A DNA stretch of 64,000 bases from Candidatus Omnitrophota bacterium (GCA_041653115.1 JBAZGA010000005.1:2296-66295), one strand, 5' to 3'. Shown: positions 32,951 through 41,288, numbered from the stretch's first letter. Notes: a model not told the origin generated them from the sequence alone. Numbers and translations: made by a program.

Positions 32951-33457
32951 ATGGCTTTTAATAAGAAAAAGCTGGAAGAAAGAGTTATGGATGTGGACGC
33001 CTCAATGCAGGGAGAGTTAAGTTTTAGGGACCCGGTAAACCTGCGGATTAACGGCAGGTTTGAAGGGACGCTGAATACGCGGGGCACCTTGACCATCGCC
33101 TCAACCGCGAATGTAGTGGCGGATATTATCGGAGATAATATTATCGTCGGCGGCAGGCTCAAGGGCCGCGTCACCGCCAAAGAAAGCCTGACTCTTCTGC
33201 CCAGCGCGGTTCTCGAAGGCGACATATATCCTTTAAAGTTAAACGTCGCGGAAGGCGCGATATTCGAAGGCCGCTGCATCATGCTGCATGATTTTTTGAA
33301 TGCGGAAGAGCTGGCGCGTTACCTGGAAGTGGACTTGAATTCCATCCTGGAGTGGGCCAGCGCAGGCAAGGTGCCGGGGGTCAAAGAAGGGGAGCGCTGG
33401 AGATTCGAGCGTAAGGCAATAGATACGTGGGTGGCTTCGGGTAAGGTAGGAAAATAA
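32951..33457 (+). CDS. Bactofilin-domain protein fused to a C-terminal excisionase-family HTH (HTH_17-like)
   Basis: Bactofilin beta-helical repeats (GTLTIASTANVVADIIGDNIIVGGRLKGRVTAKESLTL...EGDIY) then LNAEELARYLEVDLNSILEWASAGKVPGVKEGERWRFERKAIDTWV. Confidence 0.7.
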   Translation: MAFNKKKLEERVMDVDASMQGELSFRDPVNLRINGRFEGTLNTRGTLTIASTANVVADIIGDNIIVGGRLKGRVTAKESLTLLPSAVLEGDIYPLKLNVAEGAIFEGRCIMLHDFLNAEELARYLEVDLNSILEWASAGKVPGVKEGERWRFERKAIDTWVASGKVGK

Positions 33458-33469
33458 CTTAAAAAATAA

Positions 33470-33778
33470 ATGACGGAAGAAAAACTTTTAACCATCAGGG
33501 ATGCCGCTTTAATCCTGGGCATCTCCGAAAAAGAGATTATTGATTTGGCCGAAAGCGGCACAATTCCCGCCTATAAAATCGGCGGCGTATACTTAAGGTT
33601 TAAACGCCAGCAGATAGAGGAAGCCAAAAAAACCTTAAACCTCGCCCCTAAGCCGGATGCCCGCCTGGAAAGGCGCTCGTGGAAAGACGGATTCAGCGAT
33701 TTTTTCTATTTTAACGATTTTTATATAATTTCCATCTTGATAATAGCCTTGATACTTTGGATAATATTCAAAGGGTAA
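33470..33778 (+). CDS. Excisionase-family HTH protein with C-terminal transmembrane anchor
   Basis: LTIRDAALILGISEKEIIDLAESGTIPAYKIGGVYLRFKRQQI (HTH_17-like) then the hydrophobic tail YIISILIIALILWIIF. Confidence 0.6.
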   Translation: MTEEKLLTIRDAALILGISEKEIIDLAESGTIPAYKIGGVYLRFKRQQIEEAKKTLNLAPKPDARLERRSWKDGFSDFFYFNDFYIISILIIALILWIIFKG

Positions 33779-33788
33779 TGAAAAAATA

Positions 33789-34457
33789 ATGCTTCTTAAG
33801 CGGGGGTTCTGCGATTTAGGGTTTGCCAGGCTTGACATAGACAGGCAAAAGCGCCGCGGATTTTCCGAAGCGGTATATTGCCCGGGAAAAACCAGGTCCC
33901 ACCTAAAAGATATCGCCAGGACATTCATCAGGAATAAGCAGGATTTACTCTTTACGAAGTTAGAGAAAAGCACTTTTAATTATTTAAAGAAATCATTTCC
34001 CCGCTTAAAGTATAACCCGCAGGCAAAGTTAGGCTATTTATCCAGGCAGCGTAAATCCTTGAAAAAAGGCGTGGTCGCGGTAATCTCGGCAGGGACCGCG
34101 GATATTCCGGTAGCAGAGGAAGCGGTTACCACTTTAGAGGTAATGGGGAACCGCGTGCTTAAGCTTTATGATGTAGGCGTCGCCGGCGTGCATCGGCTGA
34201 TGTTCGATATCGGGAAGATTAGGAAGGCAAGCGTAATTATCGTAGTTGCCGGTATGGAAGGGGCGTTAGCCAGTTTAGTCAGCGGATTAGTCAGCTCTCC
34301 GGTGATTGCCGTGCCGACGAGCTGCGGATACGGCGCGAATTTTTCCGGGCTTTCGGCGTTATTAACGATGCTGAACAGCTGTTCGCCGGGCGTGGCGGTG
34401 GTAAATATTGATAACGGATTTGGCGCGGGTTATATGGCAAGTTTAATCAACCGATGA
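33789..34457 (+). CDS. larB: LarB-like PurE-family carboxylase (nickel-pincer cofactor biosynthesis protein homolog)
   Basis: PurE-like core VVAVISAGTADIPVAEEA...VIIVVAGMEGALASLVSG plus a LarB-type N-terminal extension of about 90 aa. Confidence 0.65.
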   Translation: MLLKRGFCDLGFARLDIDRQKRRGFSEAVYCPGKTRSHLKDIARTFIRNKQDLLFTKLEKSTFNYLKKSFPRLKYNPQAKLGYLSRQRKSLKKGVVAVISAGTADIPVAEEAVTTLEVMGNRVLKLYDVGVAGVHRLMFDIGKIRKASVIIVVAGMEGALASLVSGLVSSPVIAVPTSCGYGANFSGLSALLTMLNSCSPGVAVVNIDNGFGAGYMASLINR

Positions 34458-34870
34458 TTTCCTTAAAGGAAGGAATAAGATTCCACGGGCATTTGGGGCC
34501 TTACCTGGTTTTGGGGATACGCGCCGGGGAACTGGCGCTGAAAAAATTAAACTGTAAAAAATATTTTGGCCTGGAGGTCAAGGTTTGGGGTGCCGGCGAA
34601 AAACCCAAATCCTGCCTGATTGACGGCTTGCAGCTTTCTACGGGAGCGACTTACGGAAAAGGCAATATCAGTAAATTTAACGGCAGGGTAATCAGGATCG
34701 GCTTTAAAAATAAGGTCAGCCGCAGGAAACTGATTTTAAAATTTAAGAATACCCTGCTGAAGGACTTGGCAGAAGCGGACACGCATCAAAAAGCAGAGAG
34801 ATTGGCAAGGCAATTATATAAAAAAAATCATGCGCAGCTTTTTAACTTAAAACTTACCTCCGGAGATTGA
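34454..34870 (+). CDS. FmdE-domain protein (formylmethanofuran dehydrogenase subunit E-like)
   Basis: EGIRFHGHLGPYLVLGIRAG N-terminal FmdE signature; 138 aa. Confidence 0.6.
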   Translation: MISLKEGIRFHGHLGPYLVLGIRAGELALKKLNCKKYFGLEVKVWGAGEKPKSCLIDGLQLSTGATYGKGNISKFNGRVIRIGFKNKVSRRKLILKFKNTLLKDLAEADTHQKAERLARQLYKKNHAQLFNLKLTSGD

Positions 34871-36201
34871 AGATGGCTTTATCAGGGCTGGATATCTATA
34901 AGCTTTTACCGAAAACGAACTGTAAAGAATGCGGGTTTGCGACCTGCCTTGCCTTTGCCATGGCATTGGCAAAGAAGGCAGTAAGCATTGACAAATGCCC
35001 TTATTTAAGCGCAGAAGCAAAAAAACAATTAGAGGCATCGAGCCTGCCTCCGGTAAAATTAGTTACTATCGGCGCGGGAGAAGATAAATTAGAGGTCGGT
35101 AATGAGACGGTGCTCTTCCGCCACGAAGAGAAATTCCACCACCCCTGCGGTATTGGCTTTATTATTGAAGACACCTTAGGCGATAACGAAATAAAGCAGA
35201 AGTTAGAAAAAATTAAGCGGTTGAAATTCGAGCGCGTGGGGCAGGAATTAAACGTAAACCTGGTGGCGATAAAACAGGCGGGCAGCGGAGAAAGGTTCGT
35301 AAAAACAGTGCAACTGGCAACACAGAATAGCCGGCTTGGCCTGGTATTGATGAGCGAGGATTTAACCGCCTTAAAGCAGGCTGCGGAATTTACGAAAGAG
35401 AGAAGGCCTTTAATCTATCACGCAAGCAAAGGCAACCTCGCCGGAGTTGCGCAAATTGCGAAAGAATTTAATCTGCCGCTGGTTGTTTCCGCGCCTGATT
35501 TAGAGGCAGTTTCCATCCTGGCCGGGGAATTAAACAGCCGAGGGCTGAATGATTTAATCCTGGAGACCGGGATTAAGCCGATAAGAGATAGAATCTGGGA
35601 TTTGACTCAGATAAGAAGACAGGCGCTGAAAAAATCCAACCGCAGCTTAGGATATCCGGCCTTAACAATTATCGACAAGAAAGACCCTGAGGAAGAAGCA
35701 GCCGAGGCAGCGACTTATATCGCCAAATACGCGGGAATTATTTTGCTGCGCGGCATTGAGCCGTGGCAGATTTTATCCCTTTTGACTTTAAGGCAGAATA
35801 TCTACACCGACCCGCAGAAGCCGCTGCAGATTGAGCCCAAGCTTTACAGCGTCGGTCAGGTAACCGATAAATCGCCGGTACTGGTGACTACCAACTTTTC
35901 CTTGAGCTATTATACGGTATTGGGGGAAGTGGAGGCCAGCAAGATACCTTCTTATATCGTCAGCGTGGATACCGAAGGGATGTCGGTATTGACTGCCTGG
36001 GCAGCGGAAAAATTTACCCCGGAAAAAATCGCGGATTCCCTGAATAAATTCGGCGTCAAAGAGGCGGTTTCGCACAACAGATTAATTATCCCCGGATATG
36101 TGGCGGTGATGAGCGGGGATTTGGAAGAGAAGTCCGGACGGGAGATTATCGTCGGGCCCAAAGAAGCCGCCGGCATACCGTCATTTTTAAAAAAATTGTA
36201 A
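34867..36201 (+). CDS. acsC: Corrinoid iron-sulfur protein large subunit (acetyl-CoA decarbonylase/synthase gamma subunit)
   Basis: N-terminal [4Fe-4S] motif CKECGFATCLAFAMALAKKAVSIDKCPYL, TIM-barrel and B12-binding regions. Confidence 0.85.
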   Translation: MKMALSGLDIYKLLPKTNCKECGFATCLAFAMALAKKAVSIDKCPYLSAEAKKQLEASSLPPVKLVTIGAGEDKLEVGNETVLFRHEEKFHHPCGIGFIIEDTLGDNEIKQKLEKIKRLKFERVGQELNVNLVAIKQAGSGERFVKTVQLATQNSRLGLVLMSEDLTALKQAAEFTKERRPLIYHASKGNLAGVAQIAKEFNLPLVVSAPDLEAVSILAGELNSRGLNDLILETGIKPIRDRIWDLTQIRRQALKKSNRSLGYPALTIIDKKDPEEEAAEAATYIAKYAGIILLRGIEPWQILSLLTLRQNIYTDPQKPLQIEPKLYSVGQVTDKSPVLVTTNFSLSYYTVLGEVEASKIPSYIVSVDTEGMSVLTAWAAEKFTPEKIADSLNKFGVKEAVSHNRLIIPGYVAVMSGDLEEKSGREIIVGPKEAAGIPSFLKKL

Positions 36202-36208
36202 CCATAGG

Positions 36209-38137
36209 ATGGAAAAGTTCAAAGTTACATTTTACCCGGACAATAAGACCATAGAGGTAGAAAAGGGCAAGACTATCCTGACGGCTGCCATTTCTGCCGG
36301 AGTCTATATTAATTCCAGCTGCGGCGGAGACGGCGTTTGCGGCCGCTGCAAAGTAATTTTAAAAAAAGGCGAGGTAATCAGCCAGCCCACCGGAAGATTA
36401 AGCCTGGAAGAACGCAGGCAGGGGGTCCATCTTGCCTGTCTTTCTACGATAGAGGGCGATTTGGAGGTGGAGATTCCTCCGGAATCGAGGTTAGACTTAG
36501 AGCAGCTCAACCCCGAAGAAGTTGATTTAAGGTTAAAGGGCCTTTATTCGAAGGCCGAAGAAATCGAGCCGGTAAAATCAATTTTAGGCGAAGAAATTTT
36601 TCACCACTCTCCTTTAGCCACTAAGCTATATCTGGAATTACCTCAACCGACCCTGGAAGATACGGTCAGCGATCTGGAAAGATTATACCGCGCCATCCGT
36701 AAAATCCAGGATATCCCGGTGATGCAGGCCGGCCTGGCCAATATCCGCGGGTTAGGCGAGTTGTTACGTGATGCTGAATGGAAAATTACCGTGACTTTAG
36801 GCAAAAGAAACGGCACCACGGAAGTCGTGCTGGTTGAGCCGGGGGATACCTCGCAGCATAATTACGGCCTGGCCTTTGACATCGGGACTACGACTATTTC
36901 CGGGCAGTTGGTGGATTTACGCACCGATAAGGTTTTAGGCAGCAAAGCCGCTTACAATAAACAGGCGGCATTCGGCAGCGATATCATCACGCGTATCATT
37001 TATGCCCGGGAAGAGGACGGCCTGGAAAAGCTCCACCATGCCGTGGTTGACGTAATGAACGGGATGTTACATGAATTAATCCAGGAGCACTCAATAGACC
37101 TGAATGACGTGAACTGCGCCCTTTGCGCGGGCAATACCACGATGATGCATCTTTTGCTGCGGGTTGACCCGACATATATCAGGAGAGAACCCTATGTGCC
37201 CACGGCGAATTTTGTCCCGACGGTGCGCGCCAGCGAAGCCGGGATAAAAATAAATCCGCGCGGGCTTTTATCCTGCGTTCCGGGCGTCTCCAGTTATGTA
37301 GGCGGCGATGTCACTGCCGGGGTTTTATCCTGCGGCCTGGATAACGAAGAAGATTTATGCCTTTTGATTGATATCGGCACCAACGGCGAAATAGTTTTAG
37401 GCAGCAGGGAGTTTTTGATTTCCGCTTCTGCTTCTGCCGGACCGGCATTTGAAGGCTCGGGTGTTGCCTGCGGCATGCGTGCCAGCCGCGGCGCCATCCA
37501 AAAAATAAAAGTCAGCCCCAAAGATTTCAACGTTGCTTACAGCGTAATCGGCGAAGAAGAGCCCCGCGGCATCTGCGGCTCGGGTTATATTGACCTGATT
37601 GCCGAAATGCTGCGCGCCGGCCTCCTGGATAAAAGCGGGAAGCTCAAGGCAATAAAGAACAGGCGTATCCGTGATGGCGAAACAGGCAAGGAGTTTGTGG
37701 TGGTTTTCAAGGAAGATACAGGCACGGCTTCCGATATCGTGATTAATGAAGCAGATATTGAGAACTTGAAACGCGCCAAGGCAGCGATTTACTCGGCAGC
37801 CGCCAGCCTGGTCAGGCGTATGAGCCTCGATTTTAGGAAAATTAAGAAATTTTTTATTGCCGGCGGGTTCGGCACTTATATTGATGTCGCCAATGCCATT
37901 GCTATCGGCTTGCTTCCGGACTTGGATAAATCAAGATTTATTTTTGTCGGTAACAGTTCCTTGGCCGGAGCGCGGCAGATTCTTCTTTCTTACGAAGCGA
38001 TGAAAAAGGCGGATGAGATTGCCCGCAAGATGACTTACTTTGAGCTCTCGGTTGACCCCGGATATATGGATGAATATATGGCGGCTTTATTTTTCCCGCA
38101 TACGGATTTGGCAAAATTCCCCAGTGTGAAAGTATAA
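36209..38137 (+). CDS. acsV: Reductive activator of CFeSP (RACo/AcsV; 2Fe-2S ferredoxin plus ASKHA ATPase, DUF4445)
   Basis: Plant-type [2Fe-2S] motif SCGGDGVCGRCKV followed by a DUF4445/ASKHA-type domain. Confidence 0.8.
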   Translation: MEKFKVTFYPDNKTIEVEKGKTILTAAISAGVYINSSCGGDGVCGRCKVILKKGEVISQPTGRLSLEERRQGVHLACLSTIEGDLEVEIPPESRLDLEQLNPEEVDLRLKGLYSKAEEIEPVKSILGEEIFHHSPLATKLYLELPQPTLEDTVSDLERLYRAIRKIQDIPVMQAGLANIRGLGELLRDAEWKITVTLGKRNGTTEVVLVEPGDTSQHNYGLAFDIGTTTISGQLVDLRTDKVLGSKAAYNKQAAFGSDIITRIIYAREEDGLEKLHHAVVDVMNGMLHELIQEHSIDLNDVNCALCAGNTTMMHLLLRVDPTYIRREPYVPTANFVPTVRASEAGIKINPRGLLSCVPGVSSYVGGDVTAGVLSCGLDNEEDLCLLIDIGTNGEIVLGSREFLISASASAGPAFEGSGVACGMRASRGAIQKIKVSPKDFNVAYSVIGEEEPRGICGSGYIDLIAEMLRAGLLDKSGKLKAIKNRRIRDGETGKEFVVVFKEDTGTASDIVINEADIENLKRAKAAIYSAAASLVRRMSLDFRKIKKFFIAGGFGTYIDVANAIAIGLLPDLDKSRFIFVGNSSLAGARQILLSYEAMKKADEIARKMTYFELSVDPGYMDEYMAALFFPHTDLAKFPSVKV

Positions 38138-38138
38138 A

Positions 38139-38891
38139 ATGAGTTATACCATCGCTATTGCCGGAAAAGGCGGCACAGGCAAAACCACTATCGCAGCGCT
38201 CCTGGTGAGGCTGCTCAAGGAAAAGAAGCTGGGTTCGATTCTGGCAGTGGATGCCGACCCGAACAGCAATTTAGGCGAGGCCTTAGGCGTAGAAGTAAAA
38301 GAAACTATCGGCTCTATCCTTGATGATATCGCGGCGCATCCGGAGAGAATCCCTTCCGGGATGCCTAAAGAGCGCTTCATCGAATATGAAGTCCAGACCG
38401 CGGTCCGCGAGGCAGAGGGTTTTGATGTCCTGACAATGGGTAAGCCCGAAGGCCCGGGCTGTTATTGCTATGTCAATAACGTCTTAAGAAACCTGATGGC
38501 GCGCCTGATTAAAGACTACGATTATATCGTGATTGATAATGAGGCGGGTTTAGAGCACCTTTCCCGCCGGACCACCAGAAGCGCCGAGGCGTTGGTGGTA
38601 GTTTCAAACATTACAGCCGCAGGCTTAAAAGCTGCCGGAAGAATCGGCGAACTAGCCAGAGAGCTGGATATAAAAATAAAGAAGAGCCTCCTGGTAGTAA
38701 ATTGCTCCGAAAAAAATCCGGCAAAAGAAACGCTTAAAGAAATGGGTTTGGATTATATCGGTAATATACCCCGGGATAGGCGGATAGAAAAAATCAGCCT
38801 GAACGGAAATTCATTACTTGCATTAGCCGATGATGCGCAAAGCATCAGCGCCTTGCGTAAAATAGGAGATAAGATATGGCAGCAGAGTTGA
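38139..38891 (+). CDS. cooC: CooC/AcsF-type MinD-family ATPase (Ni-insertion accessory protein)
   Basis: IAIAGKGGTGKTTIAALL deviant Walker A and CxC metal motif GPGCYCYVNN. Confidence 0.8.
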   Translation: MSYTIAIAGKGGTGKTTIAALLVRLLKEKKLGSILAVDADPNSNLGEALGVEVKETIGSILDDIAAHPERIPSGMPKERFIEYEVQTAVREAEGFDVLTMGKPEGPGCYCYVNNVLRNLMARLIKDYDYIVIDNEAGLEHLSRRTTRSAEALVVVSNITAAGLKAAGRIGELARELDIKIKKSLLVVNCSEKNPAKETLKEMGLDYIGNIPRDRRIEKISLNGNSLLALADDAQSISALRKIGDKIWQQS

Positions 38892-39808
38892 TGTTGGAAA
38901 AATGGCCGGGTGAGGTAGCGGTGATTACTATCGGCGCGACTAAAGGCGAAGGGGGCAGCCGCTCCCGGGCGATTAAGGTCGGCGGCCAAAAGGCCCTGCC
39001 GTTTTTATCTGCCGAAGGCGCAATCCCGCATCGGCCGGTAATCGCCTTTGAAATCTGGGATACAGCGCCCACAGATTGGCCGGAAGAATTAAACAAGGAT
39101 TACCGCGATGTTTTTAGCGAGCCCCTGGCCTGGGCGGAAAAATGCGTAAAGAAATACCAGGCAGGAATTTTATGTTTGAAATTACAGGCAGCGCACCCGG
39201 ATTTCGGGGATAAGAGCCCGGATGCGGAAGCGAAATTAGTTTCAGAATTGCTCAAAAAAATAGATGTGCCGCTGATTATCTTGGGCTGCGGAGATGACGC
39301 CAAGGATAACCTGGTTTTACCGGCAGTCTGCGAAGCAGCCAAGGGCGAACGCTGCCTGATCGGGAGCGCCGTACAGGATAACTATAAAACCCTGACTGCC
39401 GCGGTGCTGGCAGACGGCCACAATATTGTCGCCGAATCGCCCATTGATATCAATATCGCCAAACAGCTGAATATTTTAATTTCCGATATGGGCCTGCCTC
39501 TGGAGCGCATCGTGATTAATCCTACTATCGGCGCACTGGGCTATGGCCTGGAATACGCCTATTCAATTATGGAGCGCAGCCGTTTGGCAGCCCTGGCAGG
39601 AGACAAAACCGTAGCCAGCCCGTTTATCTGTCTGGCAGCCCAGGAATCCTGGCGGGCAAAAGAAGCTAAAATAGATTCCGAGCACGGGATAATCTGGGAA
39701 ATAGTGACTGCTACTGCGCTGCTTCAGGCAGGAGCGGATATCCTGGTGATGCGCCATCCCCGGGCAATCGAAAAAGTGAATAAGCATATAGATGAATTAA
39801 CCGGATAG
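38876..39808 (+). CDS. acsD: Corrinoid iron-sulfur protein small subunit (acetyl-CoA decarbonylase/synthase delta subunit)
   Basis: About 310-aa TIM-barrel protein between cooC and acsE in the canonical acs order; profile consistent with AcsD/CdhD. Confidence 0.7.
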   Translation: MAAELMLEKWPGEVAVITIGATKGEGGSRSRAIKVGGQKALPFLSAEGAIPHRPVIAFEIWDTAPTDWPEELNKDYRDVFSEPLAWAEKCVKKYQAGILCLKLQAAHPDFGDKSPDAEAKLVSELLKKIDVPLIILGCGDDAKDNLVLPAVCEAAKGERCLIGSAVQDNYKTLTAAVLADGHNIVAESPIDINIAKQLNILISDMGLPLERIVINPTIGALGYGLEYAYSIMERSRLAALAGDKTVASPFICLAAQESWRAKEAKIDSEHGIIWEIVTATALLQAGADILVMRHPRAIEKVNKHIDELTG

Positions 39809-39819
39809 AGAGCAGGCAG

Positions 39820-40608
39820 ATGTTTATTATCGGCGAGCTGATTAACGGGATGTATAATAATATAGGTAAGGCGATTAAGGCAAAGGATAAGGCCGCCATC
39901 CAAAAGTGCGCCTTTGAGCAACTTCAGGCAGGAGCGGACGCCCTGGATGTCAATTGCGGCCCGGCATCGCGCGAGCCGCTTTCGGATATCCAATGGTTGG
40001 TCCAGGCTATCCAGGAGGTAACGGATAAGCCGCTTGCTCTTGATTCCAGCAAGCCGCAGGTGATTGAATCGGGCTTAAAAGTACTGAAAAATAAAGCAAT
40101 TATCAATTCTACCACCGCAGACCCGGAAAAGCTGGAAGTCCTTGTGCCCTTAGCGCAGAAATATAATGCCAAGCTCATCGGCCTGACCATCAGTTCCAAG
40201 GGTATCCCGCAGAATAAAGACCAGCGCCTGGAATTGGCCGCCAATATCGTGGCTACCTGCGCTGACGCGGGGCTTCCTATTGAAGACCTTTATCTTGACC
40301 CGATTGTGCTGCCGGTGAACGTTGCCCAGGCGCAGATGCGCGATATCCTGGAATCCATCCGCGAATTCAAAATCATTTCCGACCCTTCGCCTAAAACCAT
40401 TGTCGGCTTAAGCAATGTCTCCCAGGGAACCTGCGTCAGAAGCCTGGTTAACCGCACCTTCCTGACTATGGCAGTGGCTTTTGGCCTGGATGCCGCCATC
40501 CTTGACCCCAAAGATAAAGAGCTGGTAGATGCCGCCATTACCGCCGAGCTGATTCTTAACAAGCAGATTTACTGCGATTCCTATTTAGAGGCCTACCGGA
40601 AGAAATAG
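39820..40608 (+). CDS. acsE: Methyltetrahydrofolate:corrinoid/iron-sulfur protein methyltransferase (pterin-binding)
   Basis: MFIIGELINGM...GADALDVNCGP...DPIVLPV pterin-binding barrel signatures. Confidence 0.8.
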   Translation: MFIIGELINGMYNNIGKAIKAKDKAAIQKCAFEQLQAGADALDVNCGPASREPLSDIQWLVQAIQEVTDKPLALDSSKPQVIESGLKVLKNKAIINSTTADPEKLEVLVPLAQKYNAKLIGLTISSKGIPQNKDQRLELAANIVATCADAGLPIEDLYLDPIVLPVNVAQAQMRDILESIREFKIISDPSPKTIVGLSNVSQGTCVRSLVNRTFLTMAVAFGLDAAILDPKDKELVDAAITAELILNKQIYCDSYLEAYRKK

Positions 40609-40655: not shown

Positions 40656-40668
40656 TTACGCAATAGGG

Positions 40669-40710
40669 CCAGGTTGACTGAGGAGAGGTCAAGGTCAATC
40701 TGGTTTTTTT
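40669..40710 (+). terminator. Rho-independent terminator (10-bp stem with one G.U, 15-nt loop, T7 tail)
   Basis: CCAGGTTGAC...GTCAATCTGG followed by TTTTTTT, about 60 nt downstream of the acsE stop. Confidence 0.6.
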
Positions 40711-40769
40711 GTCGCCGCATATATTGTAATAAAATTGATTAAATAGTAATAATATATATAAGCTGAAAA

Positions 40770-41288
40770 ATGAAAAAAGCAAAAATCAGGATAAGGTTAT
40801 TAATTTGGATACTGCTGTTTATTACCGTATCGGTTTGGCTGGCTCTTGAATTCAACAAGAAGCGGCTTTATATCGAAAACTTACAGCTGGAACTAAGCCT
40901 GGAGCGCCGCCTAAAGGAATTCGTTCAGCAGGAACTCGACTCCACAAAGAATAGGCTGGAGAGAATTAGGGCAGAATTAGGCCAGACCCGGAAACATCTC
41001 AATAAGGTTAATAACAAGCTTGCCGCAGCAGAGAGTAATAACACTAAGTTGCTTGAAGAAAAAAGGGCCCTGGAAGCAAAATTACATTCTTTAACGGAAT
41101 TAAAGGCAGCTATCCGGCAGGTCAAGAAAGAGATGCGCCAGGAACGCTGCCAGCAGATTCTGGCGGAAAAAGAAACGCAGAATGAAGCCGATGCTTATAG
41201 GTTAGCCAGCGGAAATCGCGGCTTTATTTTGAAGGATGGCAAACCGACACACAAGCCCAGAGTGAGAATTGAAGTCCAGTCTGATTAA
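40770..41288 (+). CDS. Membrane-anchored coiled-coil protein (hypothetical)
   Basis: N-terminal TM (LLIWILLFITVSVWLAL) and about 120 aa of heptad-rich coiled coil. Confidence 0.5.
   Translation: MKKAKIRIRLLIWILLFITVSVWLALEFNKKRLYIENLQLELSLERRLKEFVQQELDSTKNRLERIRAELGQTRKHLNKVNNKLAAAESNNTKLLEEKRALEAKLHSLTELKAAIRQVKKEMRQERCQQILAEKETQNEADAYRLASGNRGFILKDGKPTHKPRVRIEVQSD

Follow-up and report, generated by a model that had tools for sequence, protein, structure and literature searches.

Does a complete set of genes for corrinoid-dependent methyl transfer, found with no gene for carbon monoxide dehydrogenase/acetyl-CoA synthase (CODH/ACS) beside it, belong to an ordinary Wood-Ljungdahl pathway, or does it serve some other methyl acceptor? 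The question is raised by a 64,000-nucleotide stretch of DNA from a Candidatus Omnitrophota bacterium (GCA_041653115.1 JBAZGA010000005.1:2296-66295; this whole stretch is called the window here). On its + strand, between positions 33789 and 40608, seven closely spaced open reading frames (ORFs) encode LarB, an FmdE-domain protein, AcsC, RACo, a CooC-type ATPase, AcsD and AcsE (Table 1). The evidence presented below makes it probable that the CODH/ACS of this genome is encoded elsewhere, and that the module is the ordinary corrinoid methyl-transfer half of a Wood-Ljungdahl cluster in a split layout.

The corrinoid methyl-transfer module and its absent partners

The family and structure searches agree with the names that the original prediction, made from the window alone, had given to all seven ORFs. 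AcsC, the large subunit of the corrinoid iron-sulfur protein (CFeSP), scores 568 bits against the acetyl-CoA decarbonylase/synthase gamma model NF003195 (cutoff 306) and 464 bits against the CFeSP large subunit of Carboxydothermus hydrogenoformans (2H9A) over residues 3-443. A CX2CX4CX16C [4Fe-4S] motif is read in translation at its N-terminus, and its start is the ATG at 34873 behind a GGAG ribosome-binding site, the TTG at 34867 being a miscalled ORF start. The small subunit AcsD reaches 401.7 bits against NF003376 (cutoff 280) and 142 bits against PF03599. The methyltransferase AcsE (MeTr) reaches 310.5 bits against NF005719 (cutoff 259) and matches solved MeTr structures over its full length (2YCI, 286 bits; 2E7F, 279 bits), with MetH domains at no more than 96 bits. 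In RACo the N-terminal [2Fe-2S] ferredoxin (Fer2), linker, middle and ASKHA C-terminal domains all lie above the Pfam cutoffs; the protein stays below the Moorella-type AcsV 'exception' model NF040756 (675 bits, cutoff 800), which is narrow by design. The CooC-type ATPase carries, again read in translation, the deviant Walker A motif GKGGTGKT and a CxC motif (CYC, within GPGCYCY), and its closest solved relative is CooC1 (3KJE, E=1.2e-19); the Pfam and NCBIfam scans returned generic P-loop families only, the searched libraries holding no curated CooC-specific model.

The arrangement of these genes is familiar. In Firmicutes the acs cluster runs cooS-acsB-acsC-[ferredoxin/RACo]-cooC/acsF-acsD-acsE (PMC8671834), and the five genes from acsC to acsE stand in the window in the same order as in the 3' half of the canonical cluster of Moorella thermoacetica, C. 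hydrogenoformans and Desulforudis. The window module therefore resembles a canonical cluster cut after acsB. It differs from that cluster in lacking an adjacent acsA or acsB, in lying among housekeeping genes, in having larB and an fmdE-domain gene in front, and in that its proteins do not reach the Moorella-type NCBIfam 'exception' models (AcsV, WLP_AcsD and CODH_ACS_meth). The label 'methyl-branch module' that had been proposed for it is imprecise, the folate-dependent enzymes of the methyl branch being missing; the genes are better described as a corrinoid methyl-transfer module that joins the two branches. In such a module AcsE would transfer the methyl group of methyl-tetrahydrofolate to the Co(I) of the AcsC/AcsD CFeSP, and the methylated CFeSP would pass it to acetyl-CoA synthase (AcsB), at the nickel A-cluster; RACo would re-reduce inactive Co(II) in an ATP-driven reaction, and the CooC/AcsF-type ATPase would load nickel into ACS or CODH.

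The enzymes that would complete this chain are absent from the neighbourhood. Searches of the 64 kb by tblastn with Omnitrophota queries found no AcsB, CooS, CooF, Fhs, FchA, FolD or MetF, the Moorella AcsB (a query verified against PDB 1OAO at 1696 bits) gave no match there, and Pfam scans of nearly all window ORFs of at least 150 amino acids (aa) returned no CODH/ACS or folate-branch family. The original prediction had noted no acsA or acsB within about 7 kb; in fact the 33.8 kb before the cluster and the 23.4 kb after it hold neither. An artefact of truncation, with an ordinary acsAB pair just beyond the sequence, is hardly credible given the length of these flanks, a source contig merely 3.9 kb longer than the window, and dozens of syntenic loci, their contigs 100 kb to 1.6 Mb long, that have housekeeping genes on both sides. 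The adjacent acsAB pair on a longer contig, by which the prediction would have reduced the case to an ordinary acs cluster, was not found: none stands next to the module in about 140 syntenic contigs, each extended 10 kb either way, and neither the window nor the syntenic loci show the canonical contiguous operon with acsA/cooS and acsB next to acsC.

The layout is widely conserved. A RACo scan of species-representative genomes retrieved 80 loci at 56-81% identity, nearly all of them under an Omnitrophota label; about 70 of the 80 are collinear with the whole window block, GatA-GatB-CtpA-deacetylase-TsaD-MgtC-bactofilin/helix-turn-helix (HTH)-HTH-LarB-…-AcsC-RACo-CooC-AcsD-AcsE, with DgkA, TilS, FtsH, FolP, CdaA and PdxJ usually following 3' of AcsE. 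Metagenome contigs from JGI gave 80 further loci, most with the same block. Except in one locus (L070), AcsB, CooS, Fhs, FolD and MetF were not found within 10 kb in either locus set. AcsE is 63-85% identical among the syntenic loci, at least as conserved as the neighbouring housekeeping genes, which at the level of protein identity indicates purifying selection. Recurring as it does in well over a hundred related contigs, the layout is no pointer to a new pathway.

Five of the genomes concerned, UBA1562 (L004), QZM4-2-442 (L011), QZM4-1-77 (L014), RBG_13_41_10 (L015) and UBA6253 (L047), have been placed in the Profunditerraquicolaceae, a family of the class Velamenicoccia and order Gygaellales (GTDB Koll11; GIF10; UBA6249) (Seymour et al. 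2023, PMC10066038). The window genome probably belongs to the same class (GTDB Koll11), in or near that family. An Omnitrophota MAG at NCBI holds, on a contig of 67,924 bp that the window spans nearly in full, a protein 100% identical to the FmdE-like protein of the window. The label 'GWA2_41_15' on L018 and L079 is possibly unreliable, since the table of Seymour et al. puts that metagenome-assembled genome (MAG) in Gorgyraia; in its RACo, L018 comes as near to the window as do Profunditerraquicolaceae members. In about 11 syntenic species-representative loci (L004, L017, L018, L021, L026, L034, L048, L060, L067, L079 and L081) no CooC-type gene stands between RACo and AcsD, and in those lineages it is thus dispensable or located elsewhere in the genome. 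One of them, L034, also has some 5.7 kb of signalling genes between AcsD and AcsE (a STAS-kinase, a CHASE2-SpoIIE phosphatase, a FecR-like protein and an HD-GYP protein).

AcsB and CooS loci elsewhere in the phylum

The exceptional locus L070 carries an Omnitrophota AcsB directly 5' of AcsC. Using this AcsB without its intein as a query, and then a match from that search, we found hundreds of AcsB proteins, many annotated as Omnitrophota and at least 73% identical to one another among the matches listed; the lists reach down to about 73% identity, and absence from them is weak evidence. Ten AcsB contigs were read, and they fall into two kinds. Three show the full arrangement: L084 and L087 run Fhs-FchA-FolD-MetF-CooS-CooF-oxidoreductase-AcsB-AcsC-RACo-CooC-AcsD-AcsE, and L070 runs CooS-CooF-NuoE/F-like-AcsB-AcsC-RACo-CooC-AcsD-AcsE; these are, of the loci read, the only ones in which acsB adjoins acsC as part of a complete module. 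The other seven (L083, L088, L089, L090, L092, L093 and L094, from five different MAGs or single-amplified genomes plus two assemblies) run (TrmD)-RplS-RnhB-YraN-Fhs-FchA-FolD-MetF-(CooC)-CooS-CooF-oxidoreductase-AcsB-AcsC' and continue with PgsA, (Der), PlsY, a DinG-like helicase and TrpBA. AcsC' is a divergent second copy of the CFeSP large subunit, sharing 73-75% identity within its own group and 47-55% with all remaining Omnitrophota AcsC. RACo, AcsD and AcsE are missing from all seven, so these loci cannot form a working methyl transfer chain alone, and a complement like the window module is implied.

Which known layout could supply that complement? Besides the window-type and AcsB-joined contexts there is a third, in which the module lies between trpCF and trpBA (L076, L077, L165, L170 and L171). 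Because the seven AcsB loci also carry trpBA, the AcsB-AcsC' and trp contexts are mutually exclusive. With the trp context excluded, we infer that the window-type layout is the likely complement of the seven AcsB-AcsC' loci.

The literature on the phylum points in the same direction. Velamenicoccia and Gorgyraia with the Wood-Ljungdahl pathway have Fhs, FolD, MetF and AcsB-E, no formate dehydrogenase and a variable CooS, and the Profunditerraquicolaceae are stated to 'encode this pathway' (Seymour et al. 2023, PMC10066038). The window, from the same phylum and probably the same family, supplies the AcsC/D/E part of it. The canonical gene order, the AcsB loci without RACo, AcsD and AcsE, and the AcsB-E reported for the family together favour a CODH/ACS encoded elsewhere. 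Of the two alternatives left by the original prediction, it is this one that gene order, separate AcsB loci and published gene content support better, and a different methyl acceptor has less in its favour. The canonical cluster of the lineage would have been cut between acsB and acsC, with the acsC-to-acsE half coming to lie inside a conserved housekeeping block, and the second locus would be expected to hold Fhs, FolD, MetF, CooS and AcsB.

Several observations weigh against this reading. No AcsB has been placed in the same genome as any syntenic locus and, among the matches listed, none falls on a long syntenic contig, that of L053 (1.57 Mb) included. Among those matches the protein accessions of AcsB and of syntenic AcsE are never close (they share the MFC, MFH and MDO series, tens of thousands apart, and so belong to different genomes), and none of 14 recent-style annotated AcsB among the matches listed comes from the MDD5 and MFA5/6 projects, which account for about 18 syntenic loci. 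In addition, PgsA-PlsY of the window is preceded by LepA-LepB and not by AcsB-AcsC', so any ACS locus of the window genome would be in yet another place. Between the window and the seven AcsB loci, PgsA and PlsY share only 46-51% identity, and the AcsB loci therefore come from a somewhat distant clade. It is accordingly by inference that we give the window genome a second ACS locus, and the same holds for the direction of flux, towards acetyl-CoA synthesis or cleavage. Two candidate pairings were rejected: the AcsB contig L093 and the syntenic L079, from one Hainich assembly, do not pass as one genome (tetranucleotide correlation -0.09; GC 0.43 versus 0.39), and the AcsB P0269 is not from the same MAG as L025, since it comes from JAUSEX01.

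Should AcsB and CooS have been lost altogether, the CFeSP, MeTr and RACo would serve another methyl acceptor or a folate-corrinoid methyl shuttle, and CooC, possibly with LarB and FmdE, would serve a different nickel enzyme. We consider this unlikely. Among the matches listed, no AcsB is linked to any genome with the syntenic layout, near-complete contigs included, as such a loss would have it, and genomes with only part of the pathway are on record, both for Omnitrophota and for Dehalococcoides-like cases. As a later account describes it, Dehalococcoides mccartyi has an incomplete pathway in which AcsB, AcsC and AcsD are kept and AcsA is lost, a precedent for a partial CODH/ACS run for C1 supply and not for autotrophy (Zhuang et al. 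2014, via PMC9324843). The window differs from that case in having MeTr, CFeSP and RACo, AcsB being the gene in question. In D. mccartyi, MeTr has reportedly been lost as well. The missing AcsB link, moreover, rests on the matches listed only. Against a loss stand the sequences of AcsC, AcsD and AcsE, which match ACS-type CFeSP and MeTr closely and over the full length, far better than they match MetH or other corrinoid methyltransferases; the retention of a gene in the CooC/AcsF position, whose known clients are ACS and CODH; the existence of AcsB loci that lack RACo, AcsD and AcsE and require such a module; and the report of AcsB-E for the family (Seymour et al. 2023). A CODH/ACS encoded elsewhere thus remains the better account.

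A separate observation concerns AcsB itself. Inteins are present in the Omnitrophota AcsB of L070 (4679-8233) and in P0127, P0130, P0138, P0199, P0204, P0206 and P0222. The intein is a 459-aa LAGLIDADG element immediately before the first Cys of the A-cluster motif CGCFE, with mini-inteins in P0138 and P0199. P0135 and P0145 have CGCFE intact and no intact CxxCQSF, which suggests a second intein site near the [4Fe-4S] cysteines. The name given by NCBI to the intein-bearing AcsB is 'LAGLIDADG family homing endonuclease', and a literature search combining intein, acetyl-CoA synthase and CODH found no paper.

LarB, the FmdE-like protein and the slot upstream of AcsC

LarB catalyses the first step in the synthesis of the nickel-pincer nucleotide cofactor. 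The window protein scores 289.5 bits against the equivalog model NF033503 (cutoff 175) and aligns over residues 8-222 with the solved LarB of Lactiplantibacillus plantarum (7MJ0/8SOQ, E=2e-67); on these matches it is a genuine nickel-pincer-cofactor enzyme. It is thus a close homologue of the LarB that works with LarC, LarE and LarA in the L. plantarum Lar system, and LarC follows LarB in three related loci; in contrast to that system, the window LarB stands beside an acs module and not in a racemase operon, and no LarA, LarC or LarE was found in the 64 kb window.

The FmdE-like protein matches PF02663 at 63.8 bits (cutoff 22.9) over profile positions 1-122 of 133, and its nearest solved relatives are 2GVI and 2GLZ. 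In solved FmdE homologues a His-x-His-x-Cys motif and a distal Cys bind Zn/Ni; most members of the family are encoded beside metal transporters, and only 13 of 208 occur in a formylmethanofuran dehydrogenase context (PMC2954224). Across 120 homologues of the window protein, F10-H11-G12-H13, G15-P16, S53-C54, D57-G58-L59-Q60 and H111 are invariant or nearly so. H11, H13 and C54 are invariant, and the position of the HxHxC cysteine is Gly15 in all 120, leaving incomplete the four-ligand metal site (His, His, Cys, Cys) of B8FYU2_DESHY. Compared with 2GLZ, 2GVI and 3D00 (Axelrod et al. 2010), the window protein shares the alpha+beta core at the N-terminus, together with the FHGH…C…DG.Q motifs; it differs in consisting of the core only, with no zinc ribbon, in the invariant Cys-to-Gly exchange, and in lying beside neither a formylmethanofuran dehydrogenase nor a metal transporter. 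No Fmd/Fwd (formylmethanofuran dehydrogenase) genes were found in the window or the related loci. It is a conserved and probably metal-binding protein; the gene for it and that for LarB are both real and under selection.

The slot upstream of AcsC varies among relatives. In the first locus set it holds LarB-FmdE in 30 loci (the window counted), LarB alone in 28, LarB-LarC in three (L044, L051 and L053; LarC identified by PF01969) and FmdE alone in two (L025 and L048); among the 80 JGI loci, LarB is present in 47 and FmdE in 36. From loci in which the module adjoins AcsB, and from those of the trp context, both genes are missing. FmdE and LarC share this slot, and a comparison of the two found no sequence similarity. 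The LarC of L051 (7848-8582, in the single-cell genome AM-311-N09, flanked by LarB and AcsC) has 244 aa, compared with 376-385 aa in L053 and L044, and may be truncated or decaying.

Have LarB, in some loci LarC, and the FmdE-like protein been recruited as working parts of the operon, for example in delivering nickel or a cofactor to the A-cluster or the corrinoid protein? Such a role is compatible with a CODH/ACS encoded elsewhere, and we hold it to be improbable. The gene neighbourhood gives it some appeal: in 61 loci of the first set (the window counted), and in the JGI loci counted above, LarB immediately precedes AcsC or FmdE, LarC comes between LarB and AcsC in three, and FmdE adjoins AcsC even in the two loci that lack LarB. 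The start and stop codons of LarB, FmdE and AcsC overlap or abut, the LarB stop overlapping the FmdE start (ATGA) and the FmdE stop lying 2 nt before the AcsC ATG. Three nickel-related genes (LarB, the FmdE-type gene and CooC) are clustered here, and the metal binding and transporter neighbourhoods known for the FmdE family (PMC2954224) would fit as well. The same neighbourhoods also speak against recruitment. Both LarB and FmdE are absent from L070, L076, L077, L084, L087, L165, L170 and L171, where the module is joined to AcsB or stands in other contexts; FmdE is missing from 28 otherwise identical loci; and unrelated pairs such as GatB/CtpA and TsaD/MgtC overlap just as closely. The literature search found no paper linking LarB with CFeSP. 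To our knowledge, LarA-type racemases are the only users of the LarB product, which likewise counts against recruitment. Conserved synteny, in a genome that is compact, is the simplest account of the link between LarB/FmdE and the acs genes.

Taken as a whole, a cassette that has parted from CODH/ACS and become linked with LarB (sometimes LarC) and a Cys-to-Gly FmdE could mean that AcsB was lost from some of these ultra-small genomes in favour of another, possibly nickel-dependent, methyl acceptor, or that LarB and FmdE act in maturation of the ACS or CFeSP metallocentre; we give this little credence. Were either true, it would point to a client not seen before for a methyl carrier that is well studied, or to the first function for the FmdE family. 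Neither is required by the present evidence.

Table 1. Features of the module, its upstream neighbour and the second AcsC copies, with the evidence for each assignment (unprefixed coordinates refer to the window)
Feature	Position	Strand	Evidence
Small HTH_17 (excisionase/MerR-like) DNA-binding protein	33470..33778	+	PF12728; synteny
LarB, pyridinium-3,5-biscarboxylic acid mononucleotide synthase	33789..34457	+	NF033503; PDB 8SOQ/7MJ0
FmdE-core-domain protein, 138 aa, without zinc ribbon	34454..34870	+	PF02663; PDB 2GVI/2GLZ
AcsC, CFeSP large subunit	34873..36201	+	NF003195; PDB 2H9A; cluster motif; GGAG
RACo/AcsV, ATP-dependent reductive activator of corrinoid protein	36209..38137	+	PF00111 + PF17650 + PF17651 + PF14574
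CooC/AcsF-type nickel-insertion P-loop ATPase, 250 aa	38139..38891	+	motifs; PDB 3KJE; gene order
AcsD, CFeSP small subunit	38876..39808	+	NF003376; PF03599
AcsE, methyl-H4folate:CFeSP methyltransferase (MeTr)	39820..40608	+	NF005719; PDB 2YCI, 2E7F
AcsC', divergent second CFeSP large-subunit gene, directly 3' of AcsB	L083:12434-13774		
AcsC', divergent second CFeSP large-subunit gene, directly 3' of AcsB	L088:12352-13695		
AcsC', divergent second CFeSP large-subunit gene, directly 3' of AcsB	L089:12190-13527		
AcsC', divergent second CFeSP large-subunit gene, directly 3' of AcsB	L090:12226-13563		
AcsC', divergent second CFeSP large-subunit gene, directly 3' of AcsB	L094:12289-13626		

The module in its genome

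Upstream of the module, Pfam identifies DnaG, RpoD, aromatic amino-acid genes, LepA/LepB, PgsA, PlsY, GatCAB, CtpA, TsaD and MgtC, and the genes directly before LarB encode MgtC, a bactofilin-HTH fusion and an HTH protein. The flanks described in the original prediction (MgtC, bactofilin and a terminator after AcsE) agree with these scans and with folding of the RNA. From GatC (26240) to AcsE, each gene overlaps its neighbour or lies within 50 nt of it on one strand, and the GatA/GatB, GatB/CtpA, CtpA/deacetylase and TsaD/MgtC boundaries overlap or abut as closely as those of LarB/FmdE/AcsC. Since the whole stretch is equally packed, spacing cannot sort related from unrelated genes, and the claim of one tight operon that takes in LarB and FmdE is right about the close spacing and draws from it more than it can tell. 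Nearly all credible genes of the 64 kb lie on the + strand with overlapping or near-abutting boundaries, so operon boundaries cannot be read from spacing; the cumulative GC skew climbs steadily. This strand bias and skew fit a genome that is compact and streamlined, and a stretch within a single replichore.

At the 3' end of the module, the sequence and its RNA fold reveal a hairpin, CCAGGTTGAC…GTCAATCTGG followed by T7, at 40668-40712 (+). It is intrinsic-terminator-like, and the transcription unit probably ends here; direct folding brought out this hairpin, which had escaped the consensus terminator scan. At the 5' end, a promoter-like site (33737-33765, 10/12 positions) lies in the 3' end of the gene for the small HTH_17 protein, just 5' of LarB, and the consensus scan gave a second promoter-like site 3' of AcsE; both are consensus matches only.

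Some further features of the surroundings deserve mention. A bactofilin domain fused to an excisionase-type HTH_17 (32951-33457) is followed by the second, small HTH_17 protein, and this pair stands immediately 5' of LarB in essentially all syntenic loci. Both proteins weakly match the MADS1 antiphage HTH model, under its cutoff, and the pair may be regulators. Just past the hairpin, a 172-aa ORF (40770-41288) has no family above cutoff and a weak coiled-coil-type match; it is 100% identical in a Logan contig and 54% in L041 and L148. Between 41580 and 56000 the GC content is 38-45%, compared with about 48%, and the region carries an AbiEii toxin-family gene and a polysaccharide cluster with Wzy-type ligases, GT2/GT4 transferases, a flippase, an ATP-grasp protein and a sugar transferase. 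It stands in place of the DgkA-TilS-FtsH-FolP-CdaA-PdxJ block found 3' of AcsE in most relatives and looks like a strain-variable insertion.

Altogether, the module belongs, as an ordinary member, to a system that is well known, and the pathway has already been reported in the phylum. What is new here is descriptive: a two-locus architecture, a second AcsC copy beside AcsB, conserved LarB/FmdE neighbours and inteins in AcsB, none of which we found in the paper that gives the gene content of the pathway (PMC10066038). The result calls for caution in pathway calling. The Wood-Ljungdahl genes of Omnitrophota are spread over at least two loci, so that the lack of acsAB beside acsCDE is uninformative on the completeness of the pathway; and because the intein-bearing AcsB is named as a homing endonuclease, name-based surveys could score genomes of this phylum as lacking ACS.

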